Source: an uncultured Pelagibacteraceae bacterium
GTDB taxonomy: Bacteria; Pseudomonadota; Alphaproteobacteria; Pelagibacterales; Pelagibacteraceae
Assembly (NCBI GenBank): GCA_902590465.1
Contig: CACIWX010000002.1
Location: 20,489-84,488 of the forward strand
Direction of reading: 5' to 3'
Length of the DNA: 64,000 nucleotides
The translations under genes were made by a program, and so were the position numbers. Shown piece after piece: positions 395 to 12,408 of this stretch. Below the pieces are notes generated by a model. It saw nothing but the letters and a program-made list of their open reading frames with translations, did no database searches and was not told the DNA's origin. Within the stretch, counting starts at the first letter, position 1; the number at the start of each line of letters is the position of its first letter.

Positions 395-480
395 TGGTGC
401 CCTCGGCCAGACTCGAACTGGCACTCCCAAAAGGGCAAGGATTTTAAGTCCTTTGTGTCTACCAATTTCACCACGAGGGC
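395..480 (-). tRNA. tRNA-Leu(TAA), encoded CCA
   Basis: Reverse complement GCCCTCGTGGTGAAATTGGTAGACACAAAGGACTTAAAATCCTT...GTTCGAGTCTGGCCGAGGGCACCA: acceptor stem, D-loop GG, anticodon TAA, long variable arm, TTCGA loop. Confidence 0.97.
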
Positions 481-599
481 ACGTCGTTGTTTTTGTTGTT
501 ATTGTTAATATATTAATACACAAGAGTTTTAAATAAGTAAAAAAAATTTATTTTCTGTCTCTATCTCCTAGTTTGCACCTAGTCTTCCCATATTTTATA
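441..599. repeat. Direct repeat copy A: tRNA-Leu 5' half plus upstream arm (att-like)
   Basis: Ungapped match to 5377-5535; 159 nt with 10 mismatches by manual count, first 54 nt identical. Confidence 0.95.
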
Positions 600-608
600 G
601 GATAAGAA

Positions 609-3600
609 TTAAAGAGATTTACTGTCTTTAACTCTGTCTTTTCTAAAAGTACGATTTTCATTAGTTTGATAATCATAAGTGTGTATGAATTTATTATCGA
701 TCGACCTAATTTTAACTTTTCTTTGACTTGCCCAGCCTGAGGCATTCACGTAAGAAATATTATACTCACTACCCTCTTTCCATTTAAACTTAACATCTTT
801 AGATTTGAATTCTTTCTTAGACACATTTTTTTTTCTAGATTTTTTACTAAATCCACCTTTACAGCTAACACAAACTATACCCATTCCTGATCTCAGATTT
901 GGATCTTTAAAATCTTTTATCGGTTTATATTCTTTACATTTATCACAATGTTTTGTTTGTCCTTCTCTAGTTTTTTTTATTGTCTCTTCTATTAAATCAG
1001 CAACATCTTTTTTGTGTTGAGATATATTCAAATTAGATTTTTTCGAAAATGTTTGTTTTAATTGTTTATCGAGATATTTTATTGGGTTTTCTTTAATTAC
1101 AAATTTATTAAGCCTAATAAATATTACACCGTAAGATTCTAATATTTTTTGTCTTTCCTCATGATCAACAGTATAATAATCCTCGTAATTAGTGTCTGTA
1201 ACTAAATCTTTGTTATCAAAGTGTTCCTTCAAGCCGTCATACTCTATTACAACTTTTTTCTCATCATTATTTTCATCTTTGTAAATAACTAAAAAGTCCA
1301 CAACAAATTTTGGATGATGATAGTCTGGATATATTTGTTTAAAATAGTCTCCAATAGGAAATTGACTTTTTAATTCAACTTTGTTTTTATTCTCGAGATA
1401 AAAAGGTGTTTGTTTAAACCATTGTAATACTTCCTTTTCCATTGGAGATTTAGGATCTAAATCTTTATTTTTTGGAAGTTTTTCCTCACTTGCCCATATA
1501 TTATTAATAAATCTTAATGCATTTCCTATTTCATTTTTGAATTCTTCAACTGATTTGCTCATAATAAAATACATTTTTTCTTGTACACGACTTAACCCTA
1601 CATTTAGTCTTTGAGCTTTTTTATCACCATATTCCTCCAAATCTTTATTTGCTAAATCAACTGGGAAAATCCAATTAAGTTTATCTTTGTTTTTAGTTGC
1701 AACCATAGAGTAAAATACGATCTGTCTCTCCTCTCCTTGACAAGTATCAAAGGTCATTATTTTTAACTTTAATTCTTCTTCGAAGTAGTCTTTATCCTTA
1801 TGTTTTTGTATTAAAGATGTAATTAATCTTTGTTGATCGGTAAAAGGAGTAATTATCCCTACTGATACTGACGTTTTATCAGATTTTATTTTCTCTAATT
1901 GTTTGATGATGTGTTCTGCTTCTTTTTTATTTGAATTATTGATTTCATCTTTTATTTCATATTTTAAATTTTCAAAATGAATTACTTCTTTAATTGGTTT
2001 TGTTCTCAACCTAATTGCCTGTAAATCATTATTATAAAAAGTTTTACTGCAGTAAGCGATATGCTCAGGGTAACCTCTAAAATGTTTTTTAAGTCTAGCT
2101 TCATAATTTGAAATTCTTTGAAAGAAATCAAGGATAGAAGTTTTAACATTAAAACTAGCAAGTCTTTCTAACTGGATAGCATCTTTTGAAATATTTTCTC
2201 TAAAAACTTTTCGTAATTTATTTTGATAAGTATTATTAATAATTGATGTAGCCTGGTAGGATTGTAAATTACTAAATTGTTTTTTATCTCCTAAAACTAA
2301 AATCTTTTTTGCTCTAATTATTGCCGGAAAAGCTTGAGCTATACTTACTTGAGAGGCTTCATCAATAATAATTAAATCAAACATTCCCATATCTAGATCT
2401 ATATACTCAGAAAAATCTCTAACACTTGAAATTATGCATGGAAAAGCATTTTTTAATTTTTGAAATTGGTCTTTTGGAAACTTTTGTTTGGCTCTTATAA
2501 TTTTACTAAGACTTCGAGCTGTATTTTTATTGTTATCGTAAAATTGGATAATTCCTCCGTCAATAACATCTGTCATCTTTGTAGTATGTAATGATTGAAG
2601 TTTTTTCATCAAAGTGGCGTAATCAAAATTTTCTGAATGATCAAAAATTCCTGTAAAGAATCCTTCTAAATTATAATATTTTTTAATTAATTCTTTTTTT
2701 TCTTTATCGAACGTTGCAAATTTATTTTCAAAAATAGAGTTTATTTTTTTTATATTTATTCCTAAATCTCTACATAATTTTTTATCGTTATTTAAAACAT
2801 TTATTGAATGTCTGAATTTATTAACTAGTTTAATATCTTGCTGAAGTTCAGAGTAACTCTCATATTTTTTTATTATTTTTACTGTTTTGTCAAAATTAAG
2901 TTTTTTATTACTAGTAAAGTCTTTGAACTGAGATAAATAATCATTGTATGAGGTCAATTTTTCATAATCCACTTTGAGATTAATATCTTTTTTAATTTTT
3001 AACTTTCTTTTAATCTGATCACTTAACTCGATTATTTTTCCAGACTTAAAAACACCTCCAAAAATACCTGCGGTCTCCTGACTATATTCCTCGAGTTTCT
3101 TATATAGGTAAGTAATATTATTGGTTGAAATATTTCCAAAATAATAAAATGTTTTAAAAGAATTTTTATCCTGTGAAGCAAATGTATCAATTAAGGAGAG
3201 TAAATTAAAAAAATCTGAAAGGTTTTCTACAGTTGCATTGCTATAAGAATCTTTTACTTTCTCAACTAATATTTCTAAGTCTGCAATTTCATTAAGATTA
3301 TCTATAAAATTTTCAAAATTAAATTCGTCTTTATTGATAGAATTTTCAGCAATATAATTCTTTATAGTATCAGCATTGATTGCCAAATCTTCTTTACTAC
3401 AAGTTTTTGAAATTTCCTCGAACTCCTCAAATTTTTCCTTATCTATACTTTTATAGTGATCAGATAATATTTGTAATCTATCATTAACAACGTCTGAAAT
3501 TTGTTTAATATTTTCATTAGTTTTTTCTGAGTGTGATCTCTGGGCTCTATGAAAATCTCTAAGATTATCAATTGAAGATTTTGCGAGTATTTTATTGTAA

Positions 3601-5207
3601 GTATTTCCCATCTTTCCTAATCTAAGAATAGGATTTTGTACGTTATGACTCCTTCTAACCTGATTAAGTGTTTGGTCTATTTTATTTTCAACAACATCCA
3701 AAGCTTCACGAGTATCAGACAAAATTAAAATAGACTTATTTTTTAAAATATAATCAAATGCTATTGCAGATATTGTATGAGACTTACCAGTTCCTGGTGG
3801 TCCTTCGACTGTCACATATTTACATTGATCATGTTTTAGCGATCTAATTATTTTTTGTTGTTCCGGATTGAGAGGTATTGGGCTTTCATAATTTAATCTT
3901 TCCGTGATATCTAGTCCCTCCCATTTATCTTCTACCTCTTGATTTATTACTTCAGGCTCTTTCAGTAAAAAATCAGTTATTAATTGCTTAAACATCTCAG
4001 CAATATCACTGTCACCTTGAAGTAATTTTTCTAATATATTTTCATAGTCATTTATTAGTGACTCGTCTGACTTGTCAAAAACACAAAAAGAGCAGTTATT
4101 GGAGAGAACAAAATAAATATTTTTTGATATTTGTTTTTTTGAATTAGAGAGATCAATATTCCCCTCAGTTCTTAATTTTGAAATTAACGAGACGTATATA
4201 TCATTAAATTTTGGTAATAATGTATTGTCCTCACTTACAAATAGTTTTCTTTCCTCATCAAATTTTTCTACTTTCTTATCTTCTTTTAATAAAGTTTGAA
4301 AAGCGAAATCAATTGCACGTTTATTTACAAAGAATTCATTTGAAAAAGAAACTTTAAATAAACTTTCAGTAGAATATTCTTTGACGTTTATTTGCGAGTA
4401 AAAAAGTGGAAACCTTCTTTTTTCAATTTCAATTTCCCCAAAATACAAATATATTTCTTTTTTATCTAAGTTTTTAAAAGAATTTACTATCTCTTGTAAA
4501 TCATAATACAAGTCTTTTACCTCAAAATTTAAAAATAAATCTAGCAATCTAGAACTGATATCTTTTTTATTAAATAATTCCGTAGTCTGCTCTTTAGGTT
4601 TATATTTTTTATCTGCCAATATATTGTTGAATATTAATGGTATTCCTTCAGATAATGGATCTAGCACAAGATCTGTTAATTTTTCTTCTAAGGTGTATAA
4701 AGACTCAATTTCAAAATTACTTTGACTACCGATTAATGGTTCCATTTTTTCAGTAATCGGTTTTATAATGATATCTGTTATATCTTTTTTTATAATTTCG
4801 TTTATTTTATCATATGCTTCGTCAGGTCTATTTCTATGACTAGATGCAAACTCTTTAATAGTTTTAACAGAAAGCAAAACTATTCTCTCTACATCTTTAT
4901 CTTTAATTTGTTTTATTAGCTTTTTAACAAGATCAACTGAGGTATCATTTAATTTTACACTGTAAGAACCTTTTTTTATTGAAATATCATTTTGAAAACC
5001 ATTTTGTTTTGTCAAAAGTTTTCTTATGTATTCATTAAATTTTTCATATTTGGATAAATTAATACCAACTTTAAAATTTTTTTCGTTTGTGTACTTGATT
5101 GATCTCTTGGGAAATCTTTGGGATTTAAATCCATTCTGTAAAAAGTGCATGTAGTATTTACAAAGCTCTTCTACAAAATTATTTCTACCTGCCTTTGTTG
5201 CCATCAT
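609..5207 (-). CDS. SF1 (UPF1/DNA2-like) helicase fused to Vsr/DUF559-like nuclease, Zn finger and C-terminal WYL-like domain; putative anti-phage protein
   Basis: GPPGTGKS (~aa469), IIDEASQ (~aa949), GDKKQ, HFR, TFDTCQGEE, RLNVGLSR; SPMEKEV..QFPIG..VDFLV..VIEYDG..H..R..LESYG..FIRL; CDKC/CVSC; ISYVNASG..SQRKV..ENRTFRKDRV. Confidence 0.85.
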   Translation of the reverse strand: MMATKAGRNNFVEELCKYYMHFLQNGFKSQRFPKRSIKYTNEKNFKVGINLSKYEKFNEYIRKLLTKQNGFQNDISIKKGSYSVKLNDTSVDLVKKLIKQIKDKDVERIVLLSVKTIKEFASSHRNRPDEAYDKINEIIKKDITDIIIKPITEKMEPLIGSQSNFEIESLYTLEEKLTDLVLDPLSEGIPLIFNNILADKKYKPKEQTTELFNKKDISSRLLDLFLNFEVKDLYYDLQEIVNSFKNLDKKEIYLYFGEIEIEKRRFPLFYSQINVKEYSTESLFKVSFSNEFFVNKRAIDFAFQTLLKEDKKVEKFDEERKLFVSEDNTLLPKFNDIYVSLISKLRTEGNIDLSNSKKQISKNIYFVLSNNCSFCVFDKSDESLINDYENILEKLLQGDSDIAEMFKQLITDFLLKEPEVINQEVEDKWEGLDITERLNYESPIPLNPEQQKIIRSLKHDQCKYVTVEGPPGTGKSHTISAIAFDYILKNKSILILSDTREALDVVENKIDQTLNQVRRSHNVQNPILRLGKMGNTYNKILAKSSIDNLRDFHRAQRSHSEKTNENIKQISDVVNDRLQILSDHYKSIDKEKFEEFEEISKTCSKEDLAINADTIKNYIAENSINKDEFNFENFIDNLNEIADLEILVEKVKDSYSNATVENLSDFFNLLSLIDTFASQDKNSFKTFYYFGNISTNNITYLYKKLEEYSQETAGIFGGVFKSGKIIELSDQIKRKLKIKKDINLKVDYEKLTSYNDYLSQFKDFTSNKKLNFDKTVKIIKKYESYSELQQDIKLVNKFRHSINVLNNDKKLCRDLGINIKKINSIFENKFATFDKEKKELIKKYYNLEGFFTGIFDHSENFDYATLMKKLQSLHTTKMTDVIDGGIIQFYDNNKNTARSLSKIIRAKQKFPKDQFQKLKNAFPCIISSVRDFSEYIDLDMGMFDLIIIDEASQVSIAQAFPAIIRAKKILVLGDKKQFSNLQSYQATSIINNTYQNKLRKVFRENISKDAIQLERLASFNVKTSILDFFQRISNYEARLKKHFRGYPEHIAYCSKTFYNNDLQAIRLRTKPIKEVIHFENLKYEIKDEINNSNKKEAEHIIKQLEKIKSDKTSVSVGIITPFTDQQRLITSLIQKHKDKDYFEEELKLKIMTFDTCQGEERQIVFYSMVATKNKDKLNWIFPVDLANKDLEEYGDKKAQRLNVGLSRVQEKMYFIMSKSVEEFKNEIGNALRFINNIWASEEKLPKNKDLDPKSPMEKEVLQWFKQTPFYLENKNKVELKSQFPIGDYFKQIYPDYHHPKFVVDFLVIYKDENNDEKKVVIEYDGLKEHFDNKDLVTDTNYEDYYTVDHEERQKILESYGVIFIRLNKFVIKENPIKYLDKQLKQTFSKKSNLNISQHKKDVADLIEETIKKTREGQTKHCDKCKEYKPIKDFKDPNLRSGMGIVCVSCKGGFSKKSRKKNVSKKEFKSKDVKFKWKEGSEYNISYVNASGWASQRKVKIRSIDNKFIHTYDYQTNENRTFRKDRVKDSKSL

Positions 5208-5220
5208 TTAATCTACCAAA

Positions 5221-5358
5221 TTCTAGGTTCATCTCCTAGTCTGCGCACTAGTTTGCACAAACAAATTTGCCTTGATTTTAAATACTAATTGATGGGATAA
5301 ATAAAAAAGTTAGGATTGATAATGTTTTGAGACTAACTGAGACTAACAGAGACAATAA
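5221..5358. repeat. Arm-like region: three CTAG(T/G) motifs plus 3 x 10-bp GAGACTAAC-type tandem repeat
   Basis: CTAG at 5223, 5236, 5248; gagactaact-gagactaaca-gagacaataa at 5329-5358. Confidence 0.8.
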
Positions 5359-5376
5359 GAAATGTGAATCCCTGGT

Positions 5377-5535
5377 ATTTTAAGTCCTTTGTGTCTACCA
5401 ATTTCACCACGAGGGCACGTCGTTGTTTTTATTGTTATTGTTAATATATTAATACACAAGTGTTTTAAATAAGTAAAAATAATTTATTTTACGTCTCTAT
5501 CTTCTAGTTGTCTTCTAGTCTTCCCATATTTTATA
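5377..5535. repeat. Direct repeat copy B: truncated tRNA-Leu (5' 40 nt, 5377-5416) plus upstream arm
   Basis: Matches 441-599; tRNA similarity stops just after the anticodon loop. Confidence 0.95.
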
Positions 5536-5569
5536 TGACAATAAATGAGTTTTTTTCTGTCCGCGGCAA

Positions 5570-5856
5570 CTGGCAACAGAACGCACCTTGCACTACAATT
5601 AAGAATGATAAATAATCAAGCATGATTGATTTTAAAAAAAATCCTAAATTAGCATTATTCACTTATGGAATATTATTATGTTCTGCTCTGATAGAAATAG
5701 GTGCAGAACTTGGACTCCATGAATTTGATGATTTTGCTTCACATCACGGCTTAGCAATTTTTTCTATCGGAAGTTTAATTGCTAATTGGGAAAAAATTTC
5801 TCAAATATTAATTAAAGGTAAAAAAAAGAAATATTAAGCACCTGGCAACAGAACGC
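5570..5856. repeat. 15-bp perfect direct repeat CTGGCAACAGAACGC flanking a small gene
   Basis: Copies at 5570-5584 and 5842-5856. Confidence 0.85.
5622..5837 (+). CDS. Small membrane protein (2 hydrophobic segments), unknown function
   Basis: 71-aa ORF, two hydrophobic stretches, His-containing loop (LHE..SHHG), basic tail. Confidence 0.65.
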   Translation: MIDFKKNPKLALFTYGILLCSALIEIGAELGLHEFDDFASHHGLAIFSIGSLIANWEKISQILIKGKKKKY

Positions 5857-6016
5857 TACTACTTAATTTAATATTTAAAAATATAATCCTCTTTAATAAA
5901 AGATTAAATATTTTGTAATATAGGCTTAATAATTAGATGTTCTGATTACTTATGTCTAAACTAAAAAAAATATTAAAAAAGATTTATTATTTTATCTTCC
6001 CTAAGGAGCTTAAATA

Positions 6017-6064
6017 ATGTGGCCATACAACGATAAAGAAAATGAGTTTATCTCATTGAATTGA
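6017..6064 (+). CDS. Putative 15-aa micro-peptide MWPYNDKENEFISLN
   Basis: AAGGAG SD at 6003-6008; TAATG overlap with a preceding 21-aa ORF (5952-6017). Confidence 0.35.
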   Translation: MWPYNDKENEFISLN

Positions 6065-6089
6065 ACTGTTTTAGAGAATATTATTTTCA

Positions 6090-6710
6090 TTATTTTATGA
6101 TATTTTCAATAATATAATTTGATTTAGCATCATTCATTCTTATATTTTTAAATGTGTAAAAATATTTTTTTTTTTTTATTTTTTTTATTTTGGAAATAAA
6201 TAAAAATTGAGTATGAAAAACAAGGAAATTAATATGATTTTTATTTAGTTTTTGGTTAATTTTACCATTTTTTCGATGACTATGTAATATTAAACCAAGT
6301 TTAAAATCTTTTGTGATGCCTCTAATCTTGACTAGATTGCTTTCTTTAAAAGAAATAAAATAAACATTCTTCTTAAAACCATTACATGTTTCAAGCAATC
6401 GATTTAAAGTATTTTTCCTAAGCAGAGGCTTAATCTCAACTAACACTTTTGTATTTACAGTTAAAATTTTTAAAAGATCACATAGTTTTGTTATCTTGTA
6501 TTTTTTTAAATTCTTATCAAGAATTGTTCTAGTTTTTTTTCTGATATTGAATAACCTTCTTAAGCTATAATCATGAAAGCAAATGGGTGTATTATTTTGG
6601 GTAAAGTGAATATCAGTCTCAATATTAAACTTTTTTTTTATACACTCTTTAAATGAAGTAATATGATTTTCTCTAAAGTTTTTTTCAATTAATCCTCTGT
6701 GTATAAACAT
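6090..6710 (-). CDS. Glycerophosphodiester phosphodiesterase family protein
   Basis: HRG..EN..F, ETDIH, CFHD..L.R, VEIK, FISF motifs. Confidence 0.8.
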   Translation of the reverse strand: MFIHRGLIEKNFRENHITSFKECIKKKFNIETDIHFTQNNTPICFHDYSLRRLFNIRKKTRTILDKNLKKYKITKLCDLLKILTVNTKVLVEIKPLLRKNTLNRLLETCNGFKKNVYFISFKESNLVKIRGITKDFKLGLILHSHRKNGKINQKLNKNHINFLVFHTQFLFISKIKKIKKKKYFYTFKNIRMNDAKSNYIIENIIK

Positions 6711-7924
6711 TATTTTAATCCCTTGGTTCTATGCAATATGATCCATCCAAAAAAGAGCAGTAAAAGAACTGAGGCAAAACCTATCCTTTGATTTTCAGTT
6801 ATGAAAGTAATGGTTCCTACTAAAAATGGGCCAAAAAAAGACGTTAGCTTTCCAGAAGTAGCAAATAAACCAAAGGCTTTATTCTGATCCTCAATTTTTG
6901 TTAATTTAGTTATCATGACCCTACTAGCTGATTGTATTGGTCCTATAAATAATCCCAAGAAAAATGAAAAAATAAAAAAACTAATTTTTGACTGTGTAAA
7001 AATGATTAAAATGGAGAAGAAAATAAGACATATCAAGGAAAAGGAAATTGTTTTTTTTGAATTATATTTATCATTGAAATATCCACCAAAACTAGCACCT
7101 ATTAAAGCAGCAACATTCATTAAAACAGACATCATTAAAAGTTCATTTATTGATAGTTTAAATACCCCAACAGCAAAAATACCTCCCATGACAAAAATGG
7201 TATTTAAACCATCAGCATAAAGTAGCCGTGCAAACAAAAAACGAGTTGTGTTAGTTAGACCATTATTCCAAAGAATCTTTTTTAAACTATTTGATTTTTT
7301 TTTGTTTGGTTCAACTTTTTTATATTTTGTTTGACTTAATAGTGGATAGGAAAAAATGAGAAACCAAAGGGCTACAAAAATGGCAGTGGATCTAAAATTA
7401 ATTTTTTGATCTAAATCGATTAAATAATTTGATTGAATTAATAAAATAATGGTCAAAATAAGTGTGATAATGCCACCTAAATACCCCAGCGCAAAAGCAA
7501 AACCAGACACCTTTCCCACATGTTGTTTATCCGCTGAATGAATTAATAATGAATTATAGAAAATAGAACTTAGTTCATAAAAATAGTTTGCCAAACAAAC
7601 TATGATTAAGGTAAATAAAATATATTCAGTAGATGGTTTTGCAAACCATAATGCTGCTGTAAAAAATATACATAAATAGGTGCTTGATTTTAAGATAATT
7701 GAGTTTAAATTCTTCTTATCAGCTAAATTTCCTAAAAAGGGTCCGCTTAATGCAATGCATAGTCCTGATACTGAAATGGCCCAACCCCAATATGCCTGGC
7801 CATTAACCATATCTTGAACAATTGACTCCGCAAAATAATTTGAGAAAACAAAAGTTATAATAACTGTTGTAAAGGCAGAATTAGCAAAATCATAAAGAGA
7901 AAATTTATAAGATTTTAAATTCAT
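6710..7924 (-). CDS. MFS transporter (UMF1/ATG22-like)
   Basis: LYDFANSAFTT, FYNSLL, SGFAFALGYLGG, QSASR motifs; about 12 TM segments. Confidence 0.85.
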   Translation of the reverse strand: MNLKSYKFSLYDFANSAFTTVIITFVFSNYFAESIVQDMVNGQAYWGWAISVSGLCIALSGPFLGNLADKKNLNSIILKSSTYLCIFFTAALWFAKPSTEYILFTLIIVCLANYFYELSSIFYNSLLIHSADKQHVGKVSGFAFALGYLGGIITLILTIILLIQSNYLIDLDQKINFRSTAIFVALWFLIFSYPLLSQTKYKKVEPNKKKSNSLKKILWNNGLTNTTRFLFARLLYADGLNTIFVMGGIFAVGVFKLSINELLMMSVLMNVAALIGASFGGYFNDKYNSKKTISFSLICLIFFSILIIFTQSKISFFIFSFFLGLFIGPIQSASRVMITKLTKIEDQNKAFGLFATSGKLTSFFGPFLVGTITFITENQRIGFASVLLLLFFGWIILHRTKGLK

Positions 7925-7938
7925 GCTAATTTAATATC

Positions 7939-7977
7939 TTATAAATCCAGAACCACGATTGCTAAAAGTTTTTTCAT
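7939..7977 (-). pseudogene. Orphan signal-peptide stub MKKLLAIVVLDL*
   Basis: 7949-7979 matches 10200-10230 (start of the 396-aa gene) at 30/31 nt. Confidence 0.7.
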
Positions 7978-7978
7978 T

Positions 7979-8941
7979 TTAAAGTTTATTACAATTGTAC
8001 CCTAAATTTATTAGGTTTAATTTATTACATTGATCTGCAAATCTTATTTCATCTATGTACAAAATTTGAACTGTTGACGCTTCCTCATACTTCCATTTAG
8101 TTTTCACTTTTTTTCCTTTAGCCTTTATTTGATTTGCTCTGTCTTGATAAATACCAAAATTTGTTGACGAGAGTGATGAGTTTCCTGGCATTTTATTTTG
8201 CATATCTACAATTTTTTTGCCGTTAACCCATATGAATAAACTTTTCTTATTTGGTGTATGTACTATTACATCTATCCACTTTCCTAAGTGATTAGAAAAA
8301 TGTTTTAAATCAAAAAAAGGAGGATCGTGATATTTTTCGCTTATTTTTCTACAAATATTTTTTCCCAGAAGTTTTTTGCTAATTTTCACGCACTCATTGT
8401 CGTGAAGAAAACTTCTTAACTGTACATTTACAATTCCTTCAGGTGAAATACCCATTCTATAATGTGCACCTTTGCCTTTTCTATGTATTTGATTGAATAT
8501 AAGTGGCGTATTTGAATGAATATAATTTTTAGGGATTAATACGGAAAATGAAAGCCATTTACTTCCCCAATCCCGATACTTTGTTCCTATAAAAACTCGT
8601 CGTGCTCCCTCATAGCAATTGTTCCAGTTATTTATGCTATCATTTGATTTCTTGTATATCCCACAATCACCTGGATGACTTTCAAATTTAATAGAGATAT
8701 TATCATCTCTTGAAATTTCATCTGTGATTATCAAACAGTGATCAGGTCCTTTACCATTTTGCCAGCATGAATCCCAATGGTTCATTCTTAATTTTTTACC
8801 TTCAAGAACATTATCAGGTAAATTAATTAAACGACTATTACCACTACCTTTGCTTCCAGCTAATTCTTTCCACACTATTGGATCAGCATATGAATTATTT
8901 AAAAAGAGAAAAAATAATAAAAATATAGACAAACTTTTCAT
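7979..8941 (-). CDS. Secreted polysaccharide-lyase-like (ConA/jelly-roll) protein
   Basis: Signal peptide; SIKFE..PGDC, WLSFSVLIP, IFNQIH, GKWIDV, IWVNGK, NFGIY, LYIDEIR. Confidence 0.65.
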   Translation of the reverse strand: MKSLSIFLLFFLFLNNSYADPIVWKELAGSKGSGNSRLINLPDNVLEGKKLRMNHWDSCWQNGKGPDHCLIITDEISRDDNISIKFESHPGDCGIYKKSNDSINNWNNCYEGARRVFIGTKYRDWGSKWLSFSVLIPKNYIHSNTPLIFNQIHRKGKGAHYRMGISPEGIVNVQLRSFLHDNECVKISKKLLGKNICRKISEKYHDPPFFDLKHFSNHLGKWIDVIVHTPNKKSLFIWVNGKKIVDMQNKMPGNSSLSSTNFGIYQDRANQIKAKGKKVKTKWKYEEASTVQILYIDEIRFADQCNKLNLINLGYNCNKL

Positions 8942-8990
8942 CGTTAAAATTTAAATTATCAGTATTAAATATTTATGAAAAGTAAAAATT

Positions 8991-9037
8991 ATCTTCTAGT
9001 TTGCACCTAGTCTTCCCATATTTTATAGGACAATAAG
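8991..9037. repeat. Third copy of CTAGT-pair arm motif
   Basis: atcttctagtttgcacctagtcttcccatattttatagga nearly identical to 563-602. Confidence 0.9.
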
Positions 9038-10228
9038 TTAGTTTTGTTTCCAAACAAGATTTACTAATTCTTGAGGTTTCCAACTAATAGCAAAACCATT
9101 CGTCTGAATTATTTTGTCATTTTTCCAATCAATTAAAGATAGTCTTAAACCGTGTCCTCTCATTTGAACTAAATTTTCTACATTATACCCATTTAACCAA
9201 AAGAACATTGCATATTTAGGAGCAAATTTTTTCTTAGTGGGAACGGCATTCTTAAAAGCCTCTTGTAACTTTTTTGCCTCACAAGAGTTTTTATCCTTCA
9301 TTAATTCAATAACGTATATTCCAAACCTTAGCCAATCTTCTCTAGTAAGCATGATAGATGACGATGATATTGGAACTCCCTTTTTGTCTAATAATATTTT
9401 ACCCTTTGACTCAAAACCTGCAGTTTCTGAAATATTTTTTTGAAACCATTTAGCAAACTTCTTTTTTCCTCCTAATACATTGATCATATCTAATGTTATT
9501 AAATCAGTATTAGGATTTGAGTATTTAAATTCTTTTGGTCCTTCTGTTTCTAATTTTTTAGGGTGCTTATTAAGAATAGTTGTTAAGTCAGATTTCTTTC
9601 TGTGCGTTTCCTTTAAAATATTATAATTTATTACAAATTGATCTCTAGCCAACATATTTAAGGAGTCTTTTAATTTTACATGGCCATAAAATGAGTCTTT
9701 AATTTCTGGAGAGTAATCACCATGAGTTTTATCTAAATCTAAAATATTTTGACAAGCCATTTTTAAAGCAGCAACACCAACTATTGATTTGCTCCTAGAC
9801 TCACCATTTATAGGTTTGTTATTAAAAATATAATCTCTTTTCCAATCGTGAATTAATTCTCCTTTATCAAATACCATCAAACTAGAGATATCTCTGTAAT
9901 ATACATAATCATAAATTTCTTTTGGAAGAGGTTTTATATTTTTTTTAATTGGTCTGATTGTTTTTTTTGCTGGTTGTATTACAATTCTTTTTAACCCTCC
10001 ATTATTTTTGTGATCTCTATTTTTCAAACTTGCTTTACGGTAATAGCCATGAGCCCAATAATCGTGTCTTTCTGTGCAAAACTTGCAATCATTAGGAGGG
10101 TATTCTGCTTTTGGAAAATCCTTCTTCCATCTTTCTAACGAAGGAGACCATTTATTTTTTGGTGGTGTTGCAATTAAGGTGGTGCTCCACAACAAACCTA
10201 GAACCACGATCGCTAAAAGTTTTTTCAT
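9038..10228 (-). CDS. Secreted serine hydrolase, beta-lactamase/AmpC-like fold
   Basis: Signal peptide; SRSK (SxxK), FKYSN (YxN), LTREDWLRFG, RGHG. Confidence 0.75.
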   Translation of the reverse strand: MKKLLAIVVLGLLWSTTLIATPPKNKWSPSLERWKKDFPKAEYPPNDCKFCTERHDYWAHGYYRKASLKNRDHKNNGGLKRIVIQPAKKTIRPIKKNIKPLPKEIYDYVYYRDISSLMVFDKGELIHDWKRDYIFNNKPINGESRSKSIVGVAALKMACQNILDLDKTHGDYSPEIKDSFYGHVKLKDSLNMLARDQFVINYNILKETHRKKSDLTTILNKHPKKLETEGPKEFKYSNPNTDLITLDMINVLGGKKKFAKWFQKNISETAGFESKGKILLDKKGVPISSSSIMLTREDWLRFGIYVIELMKDKNSCEAKKLQEAFKNAVPTKKKFAPKYAMFFWLNGYNVENLVQMRGHGLRLSLIDWKNDKIIQTNGFAISWKPQELVNLVWKQN

Positions 10229-10543
10229 TTAATTTTTAATATATGTATCTGGATAGTTAGCAAGATGCTCATCTGAAATTGGAGTCATTACAGCAGTTTC
10301 TAAAACAGCTCCAGCTTCCTTTCTTTTCTCAGCAAGTTCCTTATCATCCTTAAAAGCTTGGAGTGCTTCCATGTTTGGAAATTGCATTACTGTATGAAGT
10401 TTTGTCGGGTCATCTTTTTGTGTGCCTGCAAAAACAAATTTTATTCCATGTTCTTTTAATTTTCCATCCTGCGCATAGACCATCTCTTTCCATGTTTTAA
10501 ATCCTTTAGTAATTGTAATTTCACCTTTGACTAGTATTCCCAT
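10229..10543 (-). CDS. Small alpha/beta-barrel protein, DUF3764-like
   Basis: F.TW....D..LKEHGIK..F.G...DDP..L....QFP..EA...F....LAEKRKEAGA pattern; AAGGAG SD. Confidence 0.5.
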   Translation of the reverse strand: MGILVKGEITITKGFKTWKEMVYAQDGKLKEHGIKFVFAGTQKDDPTKLHTVMQFPNMEALQAFKDDKELAEKRKEAGAVLETAVMTPISDEHLANYPDTYIKN

Positions 10544-10607
10544 ATCAAACTCCTTATTTATATTTTAAAAGTTTTCAATAAATAATCTTACCAAATTTTC
10601 CCTTTCT

Positions 10608-10660
10608 GTCTTCTAGTTATCTTCTAGTCTACACAAATTATTTAGCCTTGATTTCTAATG
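10608..10660. repeat. CTAGT-pair arm motif, distal type
   Basis: CTAGT at 10613 and 10624, followed by cacaaa..gccttgattt as at 5248-5278. Confidence 0.75.
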
Positions 10661-11356
10661 TTAATTGAGGATTTTTTTAAATTTATTTTTTAATTCATCT
10701 TTAATTTTATCTTTAATCACATCTTGGTCAAATGTTTCAGTGCTTAATTTTCCTTTTAGTTCGTTGAGAGCTTTATCAATAGTTTTTTTTGCAATTGATT
10801 TGTAATTTTTGCTCTTTTTTGTATTGCCAAGATTTTCAAATTTCATATCACTTAACTTCACTGTTTGGTTGAGATTAAGTTTAGTGGAAGAGGCCGAAAT
10901 ATTAATGTCTTTAATATCTAATTGGTTTACTAGAAACTTTTTATCATTTGTTTTTCTGCTTGGACTGTTTTTGGTTTCAAGGGTCTTTTTTAACGAATTT
11001 AAATTACTTTTAGTTATATTGGTTATATCAAAGTAATAGTTTAAACTAATCCCATCGAATATAATATTATCAATTACTAAAACATCATCGTTTAATGATA
11101 AAGGATCTACCTTGACAAAAGCTTGGTCGACTACCAAAAGTTTACCTGGAAAATCTTTATTATTAATCTCAATCTTTTTTAAATTAATTTCTCCACTTAA
11201 ATAACTTATATCAAAATCGGCAATTTTGACTGACCTATTGATATTTTTAGATAAAATACCCTCTAGGTTTTTTTTAATTATTATATCACTAAAAAAAACA
11301 ATAAAGATTATGGATATAAAAGTTAAAGAAACTATAATAATTAAAAATTTTTTCAT
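10661..11356 (-). CDS. AsmA-like membrane-anchored protein
   Basis: Likely start MKKFLIII at 11356; N-terminal TM followed by beta-rich AsmA-type pattern. Confidence 0.55.
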   Translation of the reverse strand: MKKFLIIIVSLTFISIIFIVFFSDIIIKKNLEGILSKNINRSVKIADFDISYLSGEINLKKIEINNKDFPGKLLVVDQAFVKVDPLSLNDDVLVIDNIIFDGISLNYYFDITNITKSNLNSLKKTLETKNSPSRKTNDKKFLVNQLDIKDINISASSTKLNLNQTVKLSDMKFENLGNTKKSKNYKSIAKKTIDKALNELKGKLSTETFDQDVIKDKIKDELKNKFKKILN

Positions 11357-11454
11357 CAATTCTTTTATAATTATATCTCTTGGTTTAGCTATAAGTCTAC
11401 ACAAAATAATTTAAATCTGTTAAAAGATTTTTAAAAAATTACATAAAATACTTC

Positions 11455-12408
11455 ATGAAAAAAATATTGATTTATAATTCTGGCGGAGGTTTAGGAGACT
11501 CAATACAGATAATTCCATTACTATTAAGTCTTAAAAATCATTATAGAAGGTCAAAATTTTTTTATTTGGGAGCTCATACTAATCACTTTGATGGAAAACT
11601 AAAAGAATATAATATCAAAATTGAAACGCTTGATTTAAACTTAAAATACTTTGGATTTAGATGGTGGCATTTATTCTATGTTAAAAGAAATTTTGAAAAA
11701 AAAAATGAAGCTAAATTTGATTTAATTATTGATTTACAAACAAAATTTAGAAATTCCCTAATTCTTAAGAGAATTCCTCATAACTATTTTTATTCAACTA
11801 CTTTTAATAACATTTTTTCATCAAAAAAAATAAAATTTGAAACAAAGAGTCATTTAGAAAATTTAAGCATTTTTTTGGATGAAAAAATTAAATCAATAAA
11901 TTTTAACTGTAATAAATTACCCAAAAATTTATTAAGTGAAGCAAAAAGATTGTTACCAAAAAACAATTATATTGGATTTTCTATTACGCAAGGAAATGAA
12001 TATAGAAAAAAAAGTTGGTCAATCTATAAATTTATTTCATTAGCAAACAAATCTTTGATTAAAAATAAAATTCCAGTTTTTTTTATTGAAAAAAATCAAG
12101 AACATATAATTGAGAAAATTAAAAATCAGGTACCTTCAGCTTTATTTCCTGAGACTGGCTCAGACCTTTCTTGTCCTGCTTTAGTAACTGCTTTATCCTC
12201 AAGATTAGATCATGCAGTTTCTATAGATAACGGCGTAATGCATATGATGGGTTTAGCTAATATACCAATGATAGTTTTATTCGGACCTACGAATTCTAAA
12301 AAATTTGCTCCTAAAAATAATTATGTAAAAGTACTTGATAGTAAAAAAATCCACAACACATCAGATATAGAGTCTATATCTGTAGAAGAAGTTTATAACT
12401 TAATTTAA
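11455..12408 (+). CDS. Glycosyltransferase family 9 (heptosyltransferase-like)
   Basis: GGLGD, FDLIIDLQ, KKSW, IDNGVMHM, LFGPT. Confidence 0.88.
   Translation: MKKILIYNSGGGLGDSIQIIPLLLSLKNHYRRSKFFYLGAHTNHFDGKLKEYNIKIETLDLNLKYFGFRWWHLFYVKRNFEKKNEAKFDLIIDLQTKFRNSLILKRIPHNYFYSTTFNNIFSSKKIKFETKSHLENLSIFLDEKIKSINFNCNKLPKNLLSEAKRLLPKNNYIGFSITQGNEYRKKSWSIYKFISLANKSLIKNKIPVFFIEKNQEHIIEKIKNQVPSALFPETGSDLSCPALVTALSSRLDHAVSIDNGVMHMMGLANIPMIVLFGPTNSKKFAPKNNYVKVLDSKKIHNTSDIESISVEEVYNLI

Follow-up and report, generated by a model that had tools for sequence, protein, structure and literature searches.

Paired CTAGT boxes in a SAR11 tRNA-Leu island: probable arm-type sites of cassettes that carry no integrase gene

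Introduction

Integrons hold arrays of small, reshuffled cassettes that are moved by a shared recombinase, while lambda-type attachment (att) sites, such as those of lambda, P4-like elements and HPI, place a core with a 7-bp overlap between paired repeats 90–170 bp to either side, with further repeats near the core and the integrase gene beside the att site. Here, we analyze a 64,000-nucleotide stretch of DNA (the window), whose gene content and phage matches suggest a SAR11/Pelagibacter source, and in particular an island of about 11 kb between its NAD-kinase gene and tRNA-Leu(UAA) on one side and a GT9 glycosyltransferase gene at 11455 on the other, where pairs of CTAGT boxes border gene cassettes. 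These pairs are probably the arm-type sites of a lambda-like integrase supplied in trans, which would mobilize cassettes lacking an integrase gene at the anticodon loop of the tRNA; we hold the identity of the arm-type sites with more confidence than the proposal that trans-mobilization is ongoing. The layout resembles a lambda-type att site, but here full arms persist on integrase-free cassettes, many box codes share one core, and the arms recombine with each other. The island differs from integrons in that no intI, attI or attC was found in it, its core is a double-stranded piece of a tRNA gene with distant arms, and its recombinase is not resident.

Integrative elements that target tRNA genes are already known, and the cassettes of this island are a variant of them. 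The Tycheposons of Prochlorococcus also carry tRNA-targeted cargo in tandem units split by partial tRNAs, with the newest unit at the tRNA and growth of the island; however, they are defined by their own integrase, and integrase-less stretches are regarded as degenerate remnants (10.1101/2020.12.28.424599), whereas cassettes of the window type lack an integrase, yet retain the two ends and pass between species with 99% identity. The elements called VEIMEs (PMC9618062) occur in Pelagibacter and, similar to the autonomous elements described below, are circles of 7.8–9 kb with a tyrosine integrase, a primase-helicase and an AlpA-like gene; about 20% of them are reported to be without an integrase and may borrow one. 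The window's units differ in having no replication gene, and the main text of that paper, in which the words "tRNA" and "attachment" do not appear, gives no att anatomy. The tRNA-linked flexible islands of SAR11 (PMC11796062) likewise have cassettes marked by partial tRNA repeats, but the portions consulted describe no arm sites, code or integrase source. Pelagiphages of the HTVC019P type target tRNA-Leu(TAA) with complementation of its 5′ half, as outlined in 10.1101/410191; in contrast to the elements studied here, they have shorter, distinct integrases and no CTAG arms.

Further, Pelagibacter DNA and satellites have been found in vesicles and virions, according to sections of PMC11876622, and two preprints from 2026, in their accessible portions, report variable regions that are tRNA-anchored or mechanism-unresolved, with no att anatomy. 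The arrival of SAR11 variable cassettes is called unresolved in 10.64898/2026.10.07.757358, whose available portions also report no overall tRNA association of variable regions in an Arctic population, which limits the generality of the present findings. Across the literature that we searched, mostly open-access main texts apart from their supplements, no description of arm sites on SAR11 cassettes was found.

Results

Box pairs concentrate in the tRNA-Leu island

The motif CTAGT-N6-CTAGT occurs in the window at 568, 5504, 8996 and 10613, always on the forward strand, where 0.09 occurrences are expected and none of 100 shuffles reached four. The assembly that contains the window (G000; 706 kb, 30% GC, 66% complete) holds five CTAGT pairs with an 11-bp spacing; four are those of the island, and the fifth lies inside a reading frame whose peptide looks dnaK-like. 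The original prediction, made from the letters of the window, had described the pairs as exactly spaced, uniformly oriented and present only in the island, and these counts bear it out. Its proximal tail CTAGTCTTCCCATATTTTATA is also present as described, with the stop codons at 609 and 9038 lying 10–11 nt away. It had further listed a CTAGT triplet at 5223/5236/5248 and distal tails with spacers of six or seven letters; the boxes and tails are there, but the triplet opens with CTAGG and has spacings of 13 and 12, and the spacer is n7 in each of the two distal tails.

When a 22-bp weight matrix was built solely from 33 sites of relatives, the four window sites scored 27.6–31.4 bits and the next site in the genome 18.4 bits; a possible decayed arm at 11381–11417 scored below 11 bits and was not accepted. 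Moreover, a 20-nt pattern gave 69 matches in 37 of 178 genomes of the genus (35 proximal, 17 distal, 13 fused and 4 core-less arm copies), compared with eight matches for the reversed pattern used as a control, and the box motif is absent from the other 141 genomes. Because 69 of 69 matches fall in the tRNA-Leu island, with no sites upstream of core genes genome-wide, this distribution excludes a host transcription-factor regulon, a genome-wide pattern that would have counted against the original prediction.

Sixty relative loci were then compared. Of these, 40 had been selected as the most similar to the arm of the window and the other 20 chiefly as tRNA-only matches, and the following counts are therefore not prevalences: 13 loci were empty, 32 occupied, 4 had a proximal arm only and 11 were unclassed. 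The box pair is absent from 13 of 13 empty sites, where a different spacer of 64–72 bp lies upstream of the tRNA, and is present at the proximal offset in 27 of the 32 occupied sites.

A more local regulatory role, in which the boxes would be operators for a regulator of the cargo and tRNA promoters, is very unlikely. Direct repeats of 11 bp do suit OmpR- or LexA-type regulators, cargo genes have the distal boxes a short way upstream and the tRNA has the proximal boxes upstream of it, and on the minus strand the 5504/5515 boxes overlap a sigma-70-like site (9/12, within chance). However, the boxes are missing elsewhere in the genome and in the 141 genomes above, their sequence varies by cassette in matched pairs, and autonomous elements have them within the integrase coding region. 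A secondary regulatory use of the boxes is possible.

Arms, core and cargo of the cassettes

A 168-bp duplication (441–608 and 5377–5544, 92% identical), which the original prediction does not mention, comprises the 5′ half of tRNA-Leu and a 128-bp proximal arm. Units in relatives follow the order tRNA 5′ half, proximal arm, cargo, distal arm and next half copy, and the newest units adjoin the intact tRNA, in keeping with the earlier proposal of an additive array growing from tRNA-Leu. In the proximal arm, a pair of 11-mers lies about 85 bp ahead of the 5′ end of the tRNA, and in the distal arm two 11-mers lie about 150 and 140 bp ahead of the next half copy; measured from a fixed anchor, the box offsets are +82 to +84 and −165 to −169 in 38 of 43 units. 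In 36 of 43 half-tRNA copies, the exact match begins at the border of the 7-nt anticodon loop, which fits the overlap expected of a lambda-type integrase. Beside the core, the distal arm carries three GAGAC repeats with a 10-bp period, likewise not mentioned in the original prediction; of 40 distal arms, 33 have GAC[TA] at the three corresponding offsets. Table 1 lists the parts of the island.

Table 1. Features of the tRNA-Leu(UAA) island in window coordinates
Feature	Position	Strand	Remarks
tRNA-Leu(UAA)	395..480	-	Intact (ARAGORN); 5′ half and upstream DNA derive from the first cassette
Presumed strand-exchange overlap	442..448	+	TTTTAAG, the 7-nt anticodon loop; putative role
Proximal arm, cassette 1	481..608	+	Boxes 562–572 and 573–583, code TCTCCT; offset as in integrase-bearing elements
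Cargo of cassette 1	609..5207	-	1532-aa SF1 helicase protein; Pfam AAA_11/12
Distal arm, cassette 1	5208..5376	+	Boxes 5230–5240 (TCTCCT, matches proximal) and 5242–5252; extra CTAGG at 5223
Three GAGAC direct repeats beside the core	5329..5354	+	Candidate excisionase (recombination directionality factor, RDF) sites, putative function; also in autonomous elements
Second tRNA 5′-half copy	5377..5416	-	Core between cassette 1 and the composite
Proximal arm, composite	5417..5544	+	Boxes 5498–5508 and 5509–5519, code TCTTCT
Module A	5622..8941		71-aa open reading frame (+); GDPD-family protein, MFS transporter and polysaccharide-lyase-like protein (all -)
Core-less fusion joint	8985..9027	+	Distal side of module A joined to module B boxes 8990–9000 and 9001–9011 and tail
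Module B	9038..10543	-	396-aa predicted secreted protein (no family match) and DUF3764 protein
Truncated distal arm, composite	10584..10660	+	Boxes 10607–10617 and 10618–10628, TCTTCT (matches 5498); without GAGAC repeats and core
DUF748/AsmA-like gene	10661..11356	-	Pfam DUF748; stands where the arm remainder and core would be
GT9 glycosyltransferase	11455..12408	+	Host gene bounding the island; 64–72 bp from the tRNA in 13 empty-site genomes

The original prediction called this array integron-like, and in the strict form of that idea the boxes would be attC-type single-stranded hairpins acted upon by a resident integrase. The small cassettes do stand in tandem, with genes nearly all in one orientation and reshuffled between genomes; CTAG is self-complementary, and one distal arm folds better than its shuffles (z −3.0). 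However, six of seven arm strands fold no better than shuffles, the palindrome is lost, but not the direct repeat, in the box variants CCAGT and CAAGT, and the crossover maps to the tRNA loop. Nor was a resident integrase found: the assembly, at 66% completeness, has no tyrosine recombinase (PF00589) match, no integrase was found within the island's cassettes, and none of the 16 fetched loci around non-Xer integrase matches in genus genomes lies at tRNA-Leu(TAA) with these boxes. The array is real, but an integron mechanism is hardly credible for an array without an integrase whose direct repeats are not attC hairpins and whose recombination core is in the tRNA.

Separately, TCTTACCAAA is conserved at 10584–10594 and in many distal arms; the cargo strand there reads TGGTAAGA, which resembles an extended −10 promoter and sits at the third-box position of autonomous elements. 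Promoter scans gave nothing above chance.

The two ends of a unit carry the same box code

The boxes read N6-C[T/C/A]AGT, of which CTAGT is one variant, and their six inner letters vary between units, with 11 proximal codes. Five of the 43 units lacked the AGT register and were dropped; the 38 kept include 30 distinct ones, among them cassette 1 of the window and an integrated element of genome G429 described below. The code is the same at both ends in 25 of these 30 units, compared with 5.0 after shuffling (maximum 14, with none of 50,000 shuffles reaching 25), although the units are related and the shuffle thus overstates the match and yields no clean probability. Arms that face each other across a core match in none of eight pairs.

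Exchanges of code between units with the same end genes, a polysaccharide-lyase gene and a DUF3764 gene, are a better control than shuffling. In particular, the distal boxes read TCTCCT where the proximal arm reads TCTCCT (loci L035, L037 and L038) and TCTTCT where it reads TCTTCT (the window, L039, L040, L042, L044 and L046); the distal code follows the unit's own proximal arm.

Autonomous elements share the core and the arm geometry

A scan of viral contigs for the tRNA half returned 47 stretches, the majority of them tRNAs or attP sites of phages. In the elements L140, L169, L176 and L180, CTAG pairs lie at +118 and about −153/−141 from the pattern, compared with +117 and −151/−139 in the window. 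Two of these, L140 (7.8 kb) and L176 (9.0 kb), are circular viral-fraction contigs with 99-bp terminal overlaps, and elements of this type encode a 545–549 aa PF00589 protein, an AlpA-like protein and a primase-helicase. An integrase and a primase-helicase of their own are present in the autonomous L140, L176, L180 and L214 and absent in the window's cassettes. The integrase gene starts inside the distal arm, and the boxes overlap its 5′ coding region. Of 17 loci returned by a metagenome scan, 11 had the core beside the integrase. G429, from another genus of the same family, carries an integrated element of 7.8 kb at the corresponding nadK-tRNA-Leu locus; the proximal arm of this element contains CTAGT-N6-CTAGT, and its distal arm contains three CTAGT boxes. 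When the window's arms are aligned with those of autonomous elements, the CTAG columns are invariant and the GAGAC repeats are kept.

The modeled integrase has a mean pLDDT of 56, about 70 over residues 70–130, and an N-terminal unit of three strands plus a helix. Its best match in a fold search is full-length lambda Int (E 8e-4), and it also matches, at weak E-values, the arm-binding structures 3jtz, 3rmp and 3ju0 (HPI, HAI7 and P4-like), with root-mean-square deviations of 2.0, 2.7 and 7.7. This lambda Int-like model, together with the shared core and offsets, is consistent with the original prediction that the boxes are arm-type sites of a tyrosine integrase. In eight of nine aligned integrases the core-binding part (residues 150–330) is 83–100% identical, while the N-terminal domains (residues 1–135) of elements with different boxes are 44–50% identical. 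The AlpA-like gene (92 aa) has a weak AlpA match (E 0.03), and a fold search of its single-sequence model gave nothing meaningful.

Because the boxes lie in the 5′ coding region of the integrase, a code may be legible in the protein: TCTCCT and TCTTCT boxes would encode KLGDKLGD- and KLED-type peptides, and among the integrase homologs the N-terminus of P0066 reads KLGDKLGD and those of P0012 and P0058 read KLED. By this correspondence, P0066 and P0012 are candidate readers of the window's two codes.

Two further features of these elements were seen. The subgroup of L140, L169 and L180/L226 has an altered stretch in its catalytic domain (MKTVTARRTEET, MIRTTVIS) relative to other integrases of the family. 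Six other sequences, integrase-bearing or from the viral fraction, have the same tRNA core with unrelated arm repeats (L220, which is G002:C57; L219, from G394; L170, L174, L144 and L147), examples of the repeats being TGGTGTGTAAG, TGTGGAAC and TGGG[C/T]AACT; L220 is a 6.4-kb contig with an attP-like junction.

Temperate pelagiphages use the same tRNA, and their integrases could in principle move the cassettes. HTVC105P carries the same 41-bp core at 100% identity, and HTVC105P, 109P and 119P integrate at tRNA-Leu(TAA), as stated in the sections of 10.1101/410191 that treat integration. However, HTVC105P, HTVC109P and MedDCM-OCT-S35-C6 have no CTAG pair within 400 bp of attP, and their integrases are only about 290–300 aa long, which makes this source of the recombinase highly improbable. 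Phages may still package the elements.

Two integrations and one loss would suffice to account for the island

Cassette 1 (441–5416) is complete, with code TCTCCT at both ends. Its helicase occurs in none of 73 relative loci and is present in marine runs of several studies. PADLOC matches it to MkoA (1e-37), MkoC (3e-37) and PDC-S37 (5e-35), and its NCBIfam matches are below cut-off; the protein resembles the Mokosh, PDC-S37, ProA and Hhe anti-phage proteins at levels below curated cut-offs.

The second unit is a composite. In L042, module A forms a cassette by itself, complete with distal arm and core, and module B likewise stands alone in L035 and L038. In the window, the distal side of module A is cut at TATCTT (8990–8995), 23 bp ahead of its first distal box and at the third-box position of autonomous elements, and is joined there to the proximal boxes of module B. 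The joint, with the same left junction, is present in 13 loci and the unfused form in 4; since at least three different tails follow the joint in those 13 loci, it probably arose by a single fusion, after which the cargo behind the box was swapped. The cargo of the composite is 97–100% identical in nucleotides across species, compared with 71–85% for the flanking host genes (13 relatives), and on this contrast the composite has moved recently as a unit.

The composite's distal arm ends in the assembly about 40 bp past its boxes, where the DUF748 gene follows, while the full arm and core are kept in L039, L040, L044 and L046. The DUF748 gene was not found at the tRNA-Leu locus in the 60 relative loci; of 177 genus genomes, 5 contain homologs, and in the loci returned none of these adjoins tRNA-Leu, while several lie next to prepilin-like genes. 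Overall, the island can be explained by two integrations and a later loss, provided that the right-end junction, which is taken from the assembly, is not an assembly artefact. The three or more successive integrations that had been predicted are not needed, as the fusion at 8996 recurs in 13 genomes and the composite most likely arrived as one unit. The distal decay of older units, also predicted, fits the missing right core of the distal unit, but not cargo that is nearly identical to the copies in other species.

Strain breakpoints had been expected at the boxes, and several map there: the fusion joint, arm-only scars that end at the second box, and the cargo-less arm fusion in L061; some core-less arms break further upstream. 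In the arm-only scars (L060, L065, L067 and L068), the proximal arm is joined at its second box to DNA upstream of GT9, and the tRNA keeps its cassette-derived upstream region.

Other rearrangements were noticed in the cargo. The signal-peptide head (MKKLLAIVVL) of the 396-aa gene, at 10194–10230, recurs as a 37-nt orphan at 7943–7979 (92% identical), and another orphan head lies elsewhere in G000; L037, L040 and L043 have a second gene with the same head 839 bp upstream, and many marine-run contigs have loose ends at 10191 and 10228. The head may be a second recombination anchor by which secreted cargo is swapped. L248 (G142:C4) carries an inversion of the fusion joint and part of the polysaccharide-lyase gene, which may be an amplification chimera.

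Passive remnants or substrates of an integrase

The arms could instead be passive remnants of satellites whose integrase and replication genes were lost in place, with the cassettes spreading only by homologous or short-homology recombination on the tRNA and the shared arms. No integrase was found in the island or in G000 at its 66% completeness, the core-less fusions, arm-only scars and L061 show core-independent recombination, and homologous replacement is favored for SAR11 variable loci in the available portions of 10.64898/2026.10.07.757358. However, the ends, the GAGAC repeats and the exact spacing are kept in most units although, with stops in all three frames, these sequences have ceased to encode an integrase N-terminus, and the distal code follows the proximal code and not the adjacent gene. 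Empty sites offer as homology only the 39-bp tRNA half, whose copies mostly start at the anticodon loop (36 of 43, as above), and the host flanks are only 71–85% identical. We therefore judge exclusively passive spread unlikely.

Several results weigh against the preferred reading, arm-type sites for an integrase supplied in trans. On the side of the code, a first test with a free register was weaker (12.4 vs 10.8), being blurred by shifted registers; 5 of the 30 units have unmatched ends, and module A of G086 appears to be TCTTCT at its proximal and TCTCCT at its distal end, if its two contigs are adjacent. On the side of the protein, Pfam found no arm-binding family in the integrase N-termini, the arm-domain structure matches have weak E-values (0.19–0.27), and the core-binding part of the G429 integrase is 46–49% diverged despite the same core. 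With the boxes inside the integrase 5′ coding region, box and N-terminal domain could also co-travel by linkage alone. The assignment of P0066 and P0012 was read from protein, which other codons would fit, and neither their DNA nor any integrase DNA with the window's exact codes was recovered. Few hosts carry an integrase of this kind (12 of 401 family genomes, and none was found in G000 at its 66% completeness). The three box patterns of the window had no match in viral contigs, which were selected for viral genes; a looser pattern gave nine loci, none with the tRNA core. Finally, viral contigs showed no integrase-less cassette as a free circle, and four marine runs gave no informative joint: their contigs cover the cargo, and several begin at 573–578, where circle and tandem junctions are not separable.

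Discussion

The observations above fit a scheme in which small satellite-like elements that use the same tRNA would supply the integrase in trans. Its N-terminal domain would read the box code, an AlpA/Xis-like protein would act with it on the GAGAC repeats, and matching cassettes would be excised and re-integrated through the 7-bp anticodon-loop overlap. Further, since arm sequence is common to all units, recombination between short homologies at the boxes could also fuse cassettes (as at 8996), delete cargo or cores, and swap cargo. In the window, cassette 1, with both ends complete, would be mobilizable, and the composite of modules A and B, its right core lost, would be stranded. Since the boxes likely dock a satellite integrase, this scheme would explain near-identical cassettes in many SAR11 species.

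A broader picture, which we offer tentatively and with slightly less than even confidence, is a cross-species pool of non-autonomous cassettes with one tRNA core and many arm codes, each code read by a different satellite-integrase N-terminal domain, in which arms fuse and swap cargo and re-matched composites travel. If true, it would give an integron-like outcome by lambda-type chemistry, with a recombinase kept by no host.

SAR11 genomes have been described as nearly free of mobile elements. Within the scope of one tRNA island, and not of the whole SAR11 pangenome, this locus provides a concrete route for gene transfer: a substrate (two arms and a 7-bp core), a candidate enzyme family, an example at the same site, and a putative specificity between box code and N-terminal domain. 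The moving cargo includes a probable anti-phage helicase and transport genes, and surveys based on integrases would miss such transfer, as cargo crosses species without a marker gene.

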